Positions 52,514 to 55,634 of a stretch of 64,000 bases of DNA are shown here, one piece after another. The stretch lies in the NCBI RefSeq assembly GCF_001677475.2, contig NZ_CP015229.1; one strand, given 5' to 3'. The notes below the pieces were generated by a model, which made no database searches, was not told the DNA's origin, and saw nothing but the letters and a program-made list of their open reading frames with translations. Position numbers and translations under genes: made by a program. Origin of the DNA: Escherichia coli. Its GTDB lineage: Bacteria > Pseudomonadota > Gammaproteobacteria > Enterobacterales > Enterobacteriaceae. Positions within the stretch are counted from its first letter, which is position 1. The number at the start of each line of letters is the position of its first letter.

Positions 52514-53611
52514 TTATAAAGCCCATCGATTTCGCCCACTTTCTTTCGCCCGGTATAACGCAGCGTCGGCATCTGAAATAATTTGTTCAGCCGTTTTTGC
52601 GGGAGCAGAACAGGTAATCCCCTGACTAACCGTAACGAATGCATTAACAGCAGATGCCTGATGTGGGATAGCTGCCAGTTTAAGTTCTTGCTTCACTCTG
52701 GCTGCTACCGTCTCTGCTTCCGGCAATGTTGCATTAAAAAGTATGATGGCAAACTCTTCGCCACCATAACGGACAACAACATCCTCCGACTGGCGAGTTG
52801 AACGCTGTAGAGCGTCGGCAACTTGTATTAGACAACGATCCCCAGCAGGATGCCCGTAAGTGTCGTTGTAACGTTTAAAAAAATCGACATCCAGCATAAT
52901 AAGAGCAAATGACCCGCCGTTATCTATCGCGTCGTGTAAGATACTGTTCATTGCACGTCGGTTTGCTATCCCAGTTAAAGGATCACGATGTGCTAATGCA
53001 TCAAGGCGATTAATTAACTGGTTGTTATAACTGTTTTGTACCCATGCTTCTTCAAACCAACGTAACAAAATGAGTCGCCCACCATATAGCGCCAGTGAAA
53101 AAATACACCATACAACAGCAAAATGAATATTGATCTGTTGATTAAGCATAAGACTCGCTATTGGAGTGGTGAACCATAAGGGAATGACAAATGCGAGCAA
53201 TGATGGGGTATGGAAATAAAGTGCGACAACGCCACTAAGCATTAATAATACACATAGTGGATAAGCAAACTGCAGCGTCCAGTACGCAATAAAGTGATAA
53301 CTACACCATGACCATAGCAGGCTCAGGGCAACTAATAGCACCTGGATAGGTAATGTTTTTTGCCGAGGGATGAGTAGTAAACCACTGCAAATCAGCAGAA
53401 TACCCGTTGCAGATATATCAATAGAATGTATAAGGCTTTTTTCATTTAACCAGGGTGGAGTAAGGTCATTAAACAGAACACGGCGCAGCAAAATTATCAA
53501 TGCAAAACTGACATTGATAAAAGCAAACCATGGCAAACTAATCGTCATGCCGCGAATAACCATATCGCGGCGGGTTTTCCATGAGTGATGCGTTTTTCTT
53601 CGTTCAGCCAT
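52514..53611 (-). CDS. Membrane-anchored GGDEF-domain diguanylate cyclase
   Basis: 365 aa; N-terminal multi-TM region; C-terminal GGDEF domain with RYGGEEF active-site motif. Confidence 0.8.
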   Translation of the reverse strand: MAERRKTHHSWKTRRDMVIRGMTISLPWFAFINVSFALIILLRRVLFNDLTPPWLNEKSLIHSIDISATGILLICSGLLLIPRQKTLPIQVLLVALSLLWSWCSYHFIAYWTLQFAYPLCVLLMLSGVVALYFHTPSLLAFVIPLWFTTPIASLMLNQQINIHFAVVWCIFSLALYGGRLILLRWFEEAWVQNSYNNQLINRLDALAHRDPLTGIANRRAMNSILHDAIDNGGSFALIMLDVDFFKRYNDTYGHPAGDRCLIQVADALQRSTRQSEDVVVRYGGEEFAIILFNATLPEAETVAARVKQELKLAAIPHQASAVNAFVTVSQGITCSAPAKTAEQIISDADAALYRAKESGRNRWAL

Positions 53612-53657
53612 TTTTTAACCAAAAAAGGGCAGGATACCTGCCCGGTATGCAGTAAAT

Positions 53658-55634
53658 TTATGGTGTCACTATATTGAACCAAAATTCAAAATTATCCATA
53701 TAACCTAACAGCTCGTTGAGTTTTTCCGCATTGCCAGTAATTTTGACATCTCCTTTGGCCGTGGCTTCTTTCAGCGTCTCTTCTTTCAGTACAATTTTGT
53801 TCAATACATCACGAGACAGAGTGATAGTGGCATCAGCATCCGAAGCCTCTACACCAGCGGTATGATTGAGAACACCATTTTCAAGCTCCACTTTATAGGT
53901 GCCGCCATCTTCACCAAAATCGAAATTCAACACGGTTTTGGCATCTGCCGCTTTCTCACCATTAATATGGACGGCAAGATAATCAAAGAACATCTCCGGC
54001 GTCATCGCACGCACGGTGTCTGGGCTGGCAGTATTTGGTGTTGGTAATTTTTGTACGCCATTACGCAATTCCTGTGCGCCAGTGAGATAGAAATTACGCC
54101 ACGGCCCAGATTCAGCCTGATAGCCTAACTGCTCAAGCGCATCAGCTTCCAGATCTCTCGCTGCCTGGTTGTTTGGATCGGCAAACACCACCTTACTAAC
54201 AACTTGGGCAACCCAGCGGAAATTACCCTGGTCATAATCCTGTTTGGCTTTCTGTAAAATGGTATCAGCACCGCCCATATACTCGACGAATTTTTTTGCG
54301 CCTTCTTCTGGCGGCAGTTCATCAAGCGTCGCGGGGTTACCATCAAACCAGCCGAGATAAAGCACGTAAGTTGCTTTCACGTCATGACTTACCGAACCGT
54401 AATAGCCGCGATTCGCCCAGGTGTTAGCCAGTGAAGAGGGCAGTTTAAAGTTTGCGGCAATTTCATCACGGGTCTTCCCTTGATTAGCCATGCGCAGAGT
54501 TTGATCATTGATGTAACGATACAAATCACGCTGGCTTTTAAGCAGTTTGACCACGTTATCGTTGCCCCAGGTTGGCCAGTGATGTTGAGCGAGAATAATC
54601 TCGGCTTTATCACCCCACAAATTGAGAGCTTCATTAATATATTTTGACCACGGCAGCGGTTGGCGAATTTTAGCCCCACGCAGCGAATAGGTGTTATGAA
54701 GGGTGTGCGTGACATCTTCAGCGGTTTCGATCAGTTTCTTTTCTTCAATAAACCACAGCATTTCAGAAGGCGCTTCAGAACCTGGCGCCATCAGGAAATC
54801 ATAAGTCAACCCGTCAATAGTTTCTTTTTGTCCGGTTTTGGTGATGTAGTTAGTAGGAGCAATCAACGTGACTGTTCCTGCTGAAGTAGTCGTTCCCAGT
54901 CCAGCCCCCACCTGGCCTTTAACATCAGGTTTCAATAAGTTGCCATACATATAACTGGCTCGTCGGCTCATAACATTGCCAGCCATGATGTTTTCGGAAA
55001 CGGCTTCCTCCAAAAATCCGGCTGGCGCATAGATTTTAACTTTGCCTGATTTAACGTCAGCTTCATCAATTACGCCACGAACACCACCGTAGTGATCGAC
55101 ATGACTGTGTGTATAGATAACCGCCACTACCGGTTTTTTGCCGCGATTTTTGTAATAGAGATCCATACCCACTTTGGCTGTTTCTGCTGAAACAAGGGGA
55201 TCAACGACGGTAATACCCTCTTTGCCTTCAATGATGGTCATATTTGATAGATCGAGATTGCGAATCTGATAGACACCTTCAGTTACTTCGAATAACCCGC
55301 TGATATTTATCAGTTGCGCCTGACGCCATAAACTCGGATTCACCGTATCAGGGGCTTTATCGCCTTCTTTGATAAAAGCGTATTGTTGTGGATCCCAGAT
55401 AACATTCCCTTGTTCGCCCTTAATCACGTCTTGAGGAATAGGGGCAATAAAACCTTTATGGGCATCAGTAAAGTCAGTGTTATCGGCAAACGGCAACTGG
55501 TTGTAGAGTAAATTGTTTGCTTGTTGCGTGGCTGCGGTGGCGTCTTTAGGAGCTTCCGCCGCGAGGAGAGGTAAAGAACTGGTGGTGAATAATCCCGTTA
55601 TTAGCAGACTTTTAACGATATGATTAAGCTGCAT
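53658..55634 (-). CDS. Alkyl/aryl-sulfatase-like metallo-beta-lactamase-fold hydrolase (YjcS-like), secreted
   Basis: 658 aa; N-terminal signal peptide; MBL motif THSHVDHYGG. Confidence 0.75.
   Translation of the reverse strand: MQLNHIVKSLLITGLFTTSSLPLLAAEAPKDATAATQQANNLLYNQLPFADNTDFTDAHKGFIAPIPQDVIKGEQGNVIWDPQQYAFIKEGDKAPDTVNPSLWRQAQLINISGLFEVTEGVYQIRNLDLSNMTIIEGKEGITVVDPLVSAETAKVGMDLYYKNRGKKPVVAVIYTHSHVDHYGGVRGVIDEADVKSGKVKIYAPAGFLEEAVSENIMAGNVMSRRASYMYGNLLKPDVKGQVGAGLGTTTSAGTVTLIAPTNYITKTGQKETIDGLTYDFLMAPGSEAPSEMLWFIEEKKLIETAEDVTHTLHNTYSLRGAKIRQPLPWSKYINEALNLWGDKAEIILAQHHWPTWGNDNVVKLLKSQRDLYRYINDQTLRMANQGKTRDEIAANFKLPSSLANTWANRGYYGSVSHDVKATYVLYLGWFDGNPATLDELPPEEGAKKFVEYMGGADTILQKAKQDYDQGNFRWVAQVVSKVVFADPNNQAARDLEADALEQLGYQAESGPWRNFYLTGAQELRNGVQKLPTPNTASPDTVRAMTPEMFFDYLAVHINGEKAADAKTVLNFDFGEDGGTYKVELENGVLNHTAGVEASDADATITLSRDVLNKIVLKEETLKEATAKGDVKITGNAEKLNELLGYMDNFEFWFNIVTP

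Follow-up and report, generated by a model that had tools for sequence, protein, structure and literature searches.

A diguanylate cyclase gene and an alkyl sulfatase gene that lie between the Rhs/H-rpt region and pptA in the 64,000-nucleotide stretch of Escherichia coli DNA analysed here (the window) are very likely long-standing residents of the slot between yddH/pptA and yncG, kept in this strain and lost next to H-rpt elements in most E. coli. Breakpoints flush with IS ends, leftover sulfatase fragments and the synteny of outgroups together set the polarity as retention in the window and loss in K-12. Thus, K-12 represents the derived state at the pptA locus, and genes that are extra relative to K-12 are not to be taken as island-acquired. 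The locus comprises the following features, in window coordinates.

49432–50722, plus strand: full-length H-rpt (ISAs1-family) element, counterpart of K-12 ydcC (blastn, Pfam)
51770 to about 52505, plus strand: H-rpt (ISAs1-family) relic with an internal deletion (blastn to K-12 ydcC positions 26–696, 91.5%)
52514–53611, minus strand: membrane diguanylate cyclase gene (MASE5-GGDEF); longest ORF, 365 aa (Pfam)
53627–53643, minus strand: hairpin resembling an intrinsic terminator, after the stop of the sulfatase and before the start of the cyclase, GGGCAGGTATCCTGCCC then TTTTTTGGTT
53658–55634, minus strand: gene for a type III (MBL-fold) alkyl sulfatase of 658 aa whose N-terminus is signal-peptide-like (Pfam)
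55706–55733, minus strand: promoter-like site 5' of the sulfatase gene, TTGCCA, 16-nt spacer, TATAGT (consensus match only)
55851, no strand: point at which homology resumes in K-12/O157:H7-type genomes, flush with the ydcC right terminus
55940–56167, plus strand: pptA (tautomerase), conserved neighbour on the right (155 bits to the NCBIfam equivalog PRK01271, cut-off 83)

The coordinates of both genes were exact, with the final base of the cyclase stop codon at window position 52514 and the first base of the sulfatase ATG, on the minus strand, at 55634. The genes are adjacent and co-oriented, with a 94-bp spacing that is conserved in E. coli and E. whittamii, and the hairpin between them has a seven-pair stem (six of the seven pairs G-C) followed by a T run. 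The promoter-like site ahead of the sulfatase scored 10 of 12 against the consensus in a consensus scan, and a Shine-Dalgarno sequence, GGAG, could be read 9 nt ahead of the ATG; the promoter-like region is missing, through deletion, from K-12-type genomes. On the right, the pptA product is 97% identical to K-12 PptA. On the left, the full-length H-rpt element is 96.7% identical to K-12 ydcC across 1291 bp, encodes a 378-aa transposase (49576–50712; Pfam DDE_Tnp_1_assoc and DDE_Tnp_1) and is bounded by terminal inverted repeats, CAGGGAAAGATCA... and ...GTAATCTTGCCCTG. Inspection of the sequence showed that the neighbouring relic has a degenerate right terminus and ends about 10 bp past the cyclase stop codon; the same relic and junction are also present in E. 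whittamii and in strain Res13-Lact-PER13-34.

The cyclase and sulfatase genes occur together in 438 of 5426 complete E. coli genomes (~8%). An earlier note on this DNA had stated that the H-rpt genes of K-12 lead directly into pptA, and this is the arrangement found in MG1655, where ydcC and pptA lie 99 bp apart, the cyclase and sulfatase genes are both missing and blastn homology to the window starts again at 55851. The two genes are therefore not a feature of most E. coli, K-12 included, and the synteny comparison proposed in that note supports a minority trait that K-12 lacks, not cargo of the Rhs island. The gene content at the locus is ordinary accessory content that is already annotated, and neither gene is new to the databases.

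Both genes are found in genomes that have no island at this site. In 86 E. coli genomes yncG lies directly against the cyclase gene with no Rhs island between them, and in strains TCM3e1 and STLIN_13 the order is ansP-yncG-cyclase-sulfatase-pptA, without Rhs or H-rpt. Outgroup synteny was obtained from exact-protein look-ups: E. whittamii carries narZYWV-yddE-nhoA-yddH-pptA-sulfatase-MASE5/GGDEF; E. albertii has pptA-sulfatase without the cyclase; Citrobacter sedlakii has nhoA-yddH-sulfatase-yncG-ansP, without the cyclase, pptA or any Rhs there; and another enterobacterial contig has nhoA-yddH-cyclase (65% identical)-yncG, without the sulfatase and with no Rhs there. An Enterobacter cyclase homologue adjoins tynA/feaB instead, and a contig placement was not found for the Salmonella homologue P0103. 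In the outgroup comparison, the amino-acid identities of the cyclase and the sulfatase match the level of the flanking genes. Thus, the two genes are neither confined to genomes that carry the island nor absent from the empty site in relatives, as island cargo would be. The slot varies in content, the cyclase being missing from E. albertii and, along with pptA, from C. sedlakii; long residence at the site is therefore less certain for the cyclase than for the sulfatase. The cyclase ends in WEK in island-free E. coli versus WAL in the window, in E. whittamii and in an 82%-identical homologue; because of this difference the island-free E. coli cannot be counted as an untouched ancestor, an idea that we also dropped on account of the H-rpt relic shared with E. 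whittamii, and their arrangement may itself be secondary.

Genomes without the genes resume homology to the window at a nested series of breakpoints, at approximately 53712 and at 55565, 55707, 55851, 55890, 56060 and 56111, all but the first of these being scored among the 4652 genomes that match 55565–56170. Of 60 rows sampled at even spacing from 4665 matching records, about 29 start at 55851. In every locus examined the breakpoint has an H-rpt (ISAs1-family) element directly on its left, and the right terminus of this element is intact and flush in four breakpoint classes among those at ~53712, 55565, 55851, 55890 and 56111. In the 55890 class the IS itself is truncated, such that the junction in Z1322HEC0009 joins IS nucleotide 917 to 55890. 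No flanking direct repeats were found at the breakpoint-flush H-rpt elements examined. Remnants of the sulfatase gene persist in two of these lineages: IMT16316 and EC488 keep the first 23 codons at 100% identity, and F9792 keeps a 65-bp piece of the 3' end. In ST131 the deletion also removes pptA, the erosion running into the gene, and one lineage carries a further internal deletion that is IS-independent. A flush intact terminus, no target-site duplication, relics and several nested end points are together the mark of IS-associated deletion, and all four are seen among the genomes without the two genes. The same flush termini, variable breakpoints, lack of target duplications and nested loss characterize IS-mediated adjacent deletion or inter-IS recombination at Rhs/H-rpt (ISAs1, ISEc1) loci, and nothing here is unusual by comparison beyond the one truncated-IS junction and the one IS-independent internal deletion. 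The locus is thus a clean, countable case, with at least five end points, of H-rpt (ISAs1) eroding core-like genes beside an Rhs island.

We propose that the slot from yddH/pptA to yncG would ancestrally have held both genes in Escherichia and its relatives, and that the window strain would have retained both. A vgrG-Rhs island with H-rpt (ISAs1-family) elements separates yncG from the 3' end of the cyclase gene. Most E. coli lineages would then have lost, to varying extents, the DNA on the right-hand side of an H-rpt copy, a deletion that would have taken the cyclase and the sulfatase from K-12 and O157:H7, and pptA as well from ST131. The route may have been IS-mediated adjacent deletion or recombination between H-rpt copies. 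Alternatively, instead of a one-step IS-mediated adjacent deletion, a new H-rpt copy could have inserted independently at the site of each K-12-type junction and then undergone homologous recombination with a copy lying upstream. This sequence of events is quite possible, though we lean slightly away from it: these loci hold several H-rpt copies in direct orientation, and intact termini without direct repeats fit it equally well, but the truncated-IS junction in Z1322HEC0009 needs yet another type of event. The two routes are otherwise indistinguishable, and in both the outcome is the same, loss of ancestral genes.

Import of the two genes together with the Rhs/H-rpt island, or at its edge, as cargo added to a K-12-like ancestor, is very improbable, for although the genes directly adjoin an H-rpt relic, are carried by only a small minority of complete E. 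coli genomes and have a G+C content (0.40–0.50) somewhat below that of the nar region (0.51–0.56), they occur in 86 E. coli genomes without any island and, in Citrobacter and one other enterobacterium, occupy the same slot with no Rhs there, while sulfatase fragments remain in genomes that lack the genes and the breakpoints form a nested series against the IS end. The low G+C would also fit an old horizontal acquisition. The suggestion in the earlier note that the genes represent extra signalling and sulfur-scavenging capacity at the island edge is thus contradicted by the island-free E. coli, the outgroup synteny and the sulfatase relics, and long residence with repeated loss remains the reading that we prefer.

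The MBL-fold, sulfatase-like enzyme described in that note was recognizable as such, with Lactamase_B (PF00753), Alkyl_sulf_dimr (PF14863, 8e-63) and Alkyl_sulf_C (PF14864, 1e-44) all well above the curated Pfam cut-offs, giving the full three-domain architecture of MBL, alkyl-sulfatase dimerisation and SCP2-like C-terminal domains. Its HxHxDH metal motif is HSHVDH at residues 176–181, which aligns with HSHTDH of YjcS. In sequence comparisons with the PDB the protein aligns over its full length to a K. pneumoniae ST23 homologue (7tl5, 1190 bits), SdsAP of Pseudomonas sp. S9 (4nur, 1034 bits), YjcS of E. coli K-12 (4pdx, 703 bits) and SdsA1 of P. aeruginosa (2cfu, 634 bits), type III MBL-fold alkyl sulfatases with which it shares the architecture and the HxHxDH motif. 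It is much closer to the K. pneumoniae homologue and SdsAP than to YjcS, which is a paralogue (49% identity) encoded at a different locus and not the same gene. At the N-terminus, MQLNHIVKSLLITGLFTTSSLPLLAAEA, a basic residue is combined with a hydrophobic core and an A-x-A motif, and this signal-like peptide falls outside the crystallized homologue constructs, which start at query residues 26–29. The secretion named in the earlier note remains a prediction from this signal-peptide-like N-terminus. These features predict a binuclear-metal hydrolase that is exported and, like SdsA1, SdsAP and YjcS, cleaves primary alkyl sulfate esters; sulfur scavenging is one possible role for an alkyl sulfatase. 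About 8% of complete E. coli genomes keep a second alkyl sulfatase besides YjcS.

The cyclase was likewise correctly described as a membrane GGDEF protein. RefSeq and most database entries place its start at 53563 (349 aa) versus 53611 for the longest ORF, and the exact 349-aa protein is found on at least 1000 contigs, under the name 'diguanylate cyclase / GGDEF domain-containing protein [E. coli]'. Pfam matches were to MASE5 (PF17178; 151 bits, 1e-44, residues 25–206, cut-off 25.2) and GGDEF (PF00990; 165 bits, 1e-48, cut-off 23.8), the GGDEF domain also lying above the TIGR00254 cut-off of 37.4 at 157 bits. Some six hydrophobic 19-mers lying within residues 24–183 indicate a membrane domain of multiple helices. 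The active-site motif is intact, GGEEF at residues 283–287 of the 365-aa ORF, and is invariant in eight of eight homologues. The canonical RxxD inhibitory site, found five residues ahead of GG(D/E)EF, is typical of feedback-inhibited cyclases and is no requirement for membership; here it is replaced by R-Q-S-E-D, whose Q lines up with the arginine of WspR, and the R and D of this RxxxD are invariant at that spacing in all eight homologues. The protein is predicted from its sequence to be an inner-membrane producer of c-di-GMP under the control of a membrane-embedded MASE5 domain. The same ~8% of complete E. coli genomes keep one more cyclase, predicted to be active, with a MASE5 sensor and a non-canonical RxxxD. 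A scan of contigs with the cyclase protein was dominated by generic GGDEF peptide patterns (~40–49% catalytic-domain matches in unrelated phyla) and yielded no orthologues. K-12 DgcF was rejected as a paralogue with the same sensor, as it shares 28% identity over GGDEF alone and has no MASE5 match.

DgcX of EAEC and O104:H4 resembles the window cyclase in being a membrane GGDEF cyclase that has an intact A-site and is absent from K-12 (PMC4287979). Its N-terminal domain, however, is MASE4, with eight helices in ~270 aa, as in DgcT (YcdT) and CdgI (YeaI), and it has a canonical RxxD I-site and adjoins lambdoid prophages at attB (PMC4287979, PMC10459773). In contrast, the window cyclase matches MASE5 only in Pfam, has RxxxD and sits at the pptA/yncG locus, and we rejected its identity with DgcX on the basis of sensor domain, I-site and locus. 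In the papers searched, nothing relevant on DgcY or MASE5 was found. [quoted passage not shown] It resembles the window cyclase in being a membrane-associated GGDEF protein that some E. coli strains carry and K-12 lacks, and we take the two to be probably the same, as a lead and not as a result.

The cyclase and the sulfatase probably do not form a functional module, because a strong terminator separates their genes and each occurs singly in other species; they are probably transcribed and used independently. The terminator-like hairpin argues that the sulfatase gene would be its own transcription unit, and an operon of the two genes was set aside on this ground. A pair in which alkyl sulfate or detergent at the membrane signals through the MASE5 cyclase to c-di-GMP while the sulfatase removes the compound would account for the adjacency, the co-orientation and the spacing conserved in E. 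coli and E. whittamii. In Pseudomonas aeruginosa, SDS-induced aggregation depends on the cyclase SiaD, and SiaD is the best sub-threshold NCBIfam equivalog match of the window cyclase, although only the GGDEF domain is covered. We consider such a pair very unlikely, given the strong terminator, the sulfatase with no cyclase beside it in C. sedlakii and E. albertii, the cyclase with no sulfatase in another enterobacterium, and the Enterobacter homologue beside tynA/feaB. Very unlikely, too, is a loose detergent or alkyl-sulfate response pair, in which MASE5 would sense membrane perturbation and drive c-di-GMP-dependent aggregation while the sulfatase detoxifies; if this were true, the repeated IS-driven loss in major E. 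coli lineages would reflect relaxed selection in the gut.

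The earlier note placed a membrane diguanylate cyclase and a secreted sulfatase-like enzyme between the H-rpt region and pptA, and this observation was confirmed, with its coordinates matching the exact limits of two minus-strand ORFs that carry the corresponding domains:

52514-53611, minus strand: cyclase of 365 aa if read from the first ATG (349 aa with the RefSeq start, the ATG at 53563)
Cyclase residues 25-206: MASE5 membrane sensor domain, 151 bits
Cyclase residues 207-362: GGDEF domain, 165 bits
53658-55634, minus strand: sulfatase, 658 aa
55940: start of pptA

It was also right that H-rpt, an ISAs1-family element, directly precedes pptA in K-12, as MG1655 has rhsE-ydcD-yncI-ydcC(H-rpt)-pptA, the last two genes being 99 bp apart. 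Its interpretation, that the genes are extra capacity at the edge of the Rhs/H-rpt island, holds only in part because the polarity is reversed: the genes are present without the island in 86 genomes, lie in the same slot in relatives, and have left deletion relics. We conclude that the cyclase and sulfatase are not island cargo, and that they were retained in the window strain and lost, in association with an IS element, from K-12 and most other lineages.

Among 5426 complete E. coli genomes, 438 carry at least 80% of window 52400-55900. A shorter query (55565-56170), which covers the 5' end of the sulfatase gene and pptA, gave matches in 4652 genomes, and the left end points of these matches form discrete classes:

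Left end points of matches to 55565-56170 (frequencies from 60 evenly sampled rows, except for the exact count of the 55565 class)
55565 or further left: 524 genomes, exact count
55707: ~2/60 sampled rows
55851: ~29/60 sampled rows, including K-12 and O157:H7
55890: ~14/60 sampled rows
56060: 1/60 sampled rows
56111: ~7/60 sampled rows, including ST131; pptA itself deleted

In all loci inspected, an ISAs1-family (H-rpt) element lies directly left of the breakpoint. The element is complete, with its inverted-repeat terminus (...GTAATCTTGCCCTG) flush with the breakpoint, in K-12 (where blastn places the right terminus at 55851), IMT16316/EC488 and ST131, and no direct repeats flank the H-rpt copies in these strains. 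Remnants of the lost DNA persist: IMT16316 and EC488 keep the first 23 sulfatase codons at 100% identity; and in F9792, where a second internal deletion reaches 55706, 65 bp from the 3' end of the sulfatase gene survive beside the IS terminus. In Z1322HEC0009 the IS itself breaks off at nucleotide 917, where it joins 55890. These breakpoints and relics show that DNA already in place was deleted repeatedly, and not that the site was ancestrally empty. The process is textbook IS biology and both genes were already known and annotated, and the nested end points and relics make a tidy example of it. The ST131 locus (its positions 6710-8060) reads ansP-ydcC-yddH, without pptA, yncG, yncH or any of the Rhs region.

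The locus of strains TCM3e1 and STLIN_13 reads ansP-yncG-cyclase-sulfatase-pptA-yddH-nhoA, and vgrG, Rhs and H-rpt are missing from it. The yncG/cyclase junction is uninterrupted in 86 E. coli genomes, and the ~350 other carriers therefore have an island between these two genes, as in the window; ansP and yncG are not found in the 64,000-nt window. Both island-free loci also have IS621, absent from the window, between nhoA and yddE (14476-15456 of the TCM3e1 locus, 10433-11413 of the STLIN_13 locus). Gene order in relatives is narZYWV-yddE-nhoA-yddH-pptA-sulfatase-MASE5/GGDEF in E. whittamii; pptA-sulfatase followed by an Rhs gene, without the cyclase, in E. albertii; nhoA-yddH-sulfatase-yncG-ansP in Citrobacter sedlakii; and nhoA-yddH-cyclase (65% identical)-yncG, without sulfatase or pptA, in an enterobacterial metagenome contig. 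Amino-acid identities of the two proteins match the level of the flanking genes (C. sedlakii: sulfatase 92.7% versus yddH 91% and nhoA 83%; E. whittamii: cyclase 93.7% and sulfatase 97.9% versus nhoA 95.4%), so the sulfatase has long occupied this slot. The cyclase dates back at least to the origin of the genus and is probably older.

The island-free E. coli genomes were dropped as a pristine ancestor. In these, no spacer separates the yncG stop codon from that of the cyclase gene, and the cyclase ends in ...RNRWEK (8993-9001 of the TCM3e1 locus), while ...RNRWAL is found in the window (52514-52522), E. whittamii and an 82%-identical homologue; distant homologues show both ends (Lelliottia WAL, Hafnia WEK). 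Furthermore, a degenerate, internally deleted H-rpt relic lies ~10 bp past the cyclase stop, at the same junction, in both the window (51770-52505) and E. whittamii (11122-11230 of its locus). Being common to both (93% over 330 bp), the relic is old, and it either predates the species split or has crossed it by recombination. A later clean-out may have produced the island-free state; this leaves the main conclusion unchanged.

The cyclase and sulfatase probably do not form a module. A functional link, in which alkyl-sulfate exposure, the MASE5 sensor and c-di-GMP are connected, is very improbable given the strong hairpin and T-run (53643-53627) after the sulfatase stop, a terminator between the two genes, and their separability, each being found without the other in relatives (sulfatase alone in E. 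albertii and C. sedlakii, cyclase alone in the metagenome contig). Also against a module, a ~51%-identical Enterobacter cyclase homologue adjoins tynA/feaB. No recognisable promoter was found between the terminator and the cyclase start.

The sulfatase, already in databases as 'alkyl/aryl-sulfatase', has the three-domain architecture of a type III alkyl sulfatase (Lactamase_B, Alkyl_sulf_dimr, Alkyl_sulf_C) together with the HSHVDH metal motif, and its gene is preceded by a promoter-like site and a good Shine-Dalgarno sequence. It aligns end to end with the solved structures 7tl5 (1190 bits; a Klebsiella pneumoniae ST23 homologue, PMC9933657), 4nur (SdsAP), 4pdx (E. coli YjcS) and 2cfu (SdsA1). 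Crystallised constructs of homologues start at query residues 26-29, and residues 1-25 resemble a Sec signal peptide; thus, the protein is likely exported. With only 49% identity to K-12 YjcS, whose gene is at a different locus, it would be a second, paralogous alkyl sulfatase.

In the cyclase, a hydropathy scan gave ~six hydrophobic segments (residues 24-183), and the GGEEF motif is intact. Feedback-inhibited cyclases have RxxD at the inhibitory site. At this position the cyclase has R-Q-S-E-D (residues 276-280; window 52772-52786), its Q pairing with the canonical arginine of WspR in a HMMER alignment. The R and D are invariant at RxxxD spacing in all eight aligned MASE5-GGDEF homologues (94% down to 49% identity), so the variant is family-wide and canonical RxxD is not found at this site. 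The exact protein occurs on at least 1000 database contigs as 'diguanylate cyclase / GGDEF domain-containing protein', and no NCBIfam equivalog matched it at or above its own cut-off. In 2016, Povolotsky and Hengge reportedly gave the names DgcX and DgcY to two membrane cyclases absent from K-12. DgcY is the obvious candidate identity for the window cyclase. DgcX was rejected, as it differs in sensor domain, inhibitory site and location: unlike the window cyclase, with MASE5 and RxxxD, it has a MASE4-type eight-helix domain and canonical RxxD, and sits beside lambdoid prophages at attB (PMC4287979, PMC10459773). The Enterobacter homologue lies between a copper amine oxidase gene (tynA-like) and those for an aldehyde dehydrogenase and AraC regulator (feaB/feaR-like; 3609-8706 of that locus), a conserved-looking neighbourhood that may offer a clue to what MASE5 senses.

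The left part of the window is mostly taken up by a Mu-like prophage (~5000-40202), in which MuA and MuB are followed by terminase, Mu-type portal, tail sheath, tape measure and tail fibre genes. Homology to strain Res13-Lact-PER13-34 resumes at 40203, within a hypothetical gene upstream of vgrG, so the vgrG-Rhs island is broken on its left side by the prophage. Other elements are:

6292-8457: MuA transposase
8533-9486: MuB
48801-49130 and 51319-51648, minus strand: paralogous 109-aa ORFs, one just upstream of each H-rpt copy
50737-51239: low-GC ORFs of 61 aa and 106 aa, right of the full H-rpt copy (49432-50722)

The regions of the two 109-aa ORFs match one and the same gene of Res13-Lact-PER13-34, annotated 'SymE family type I addiction module toxin', at 93% (48801-49130) and 86% (51319-51648), and the low-GC ORFs look like a putative orphan Rhs C-terminal toxin tip and its immunity gene.
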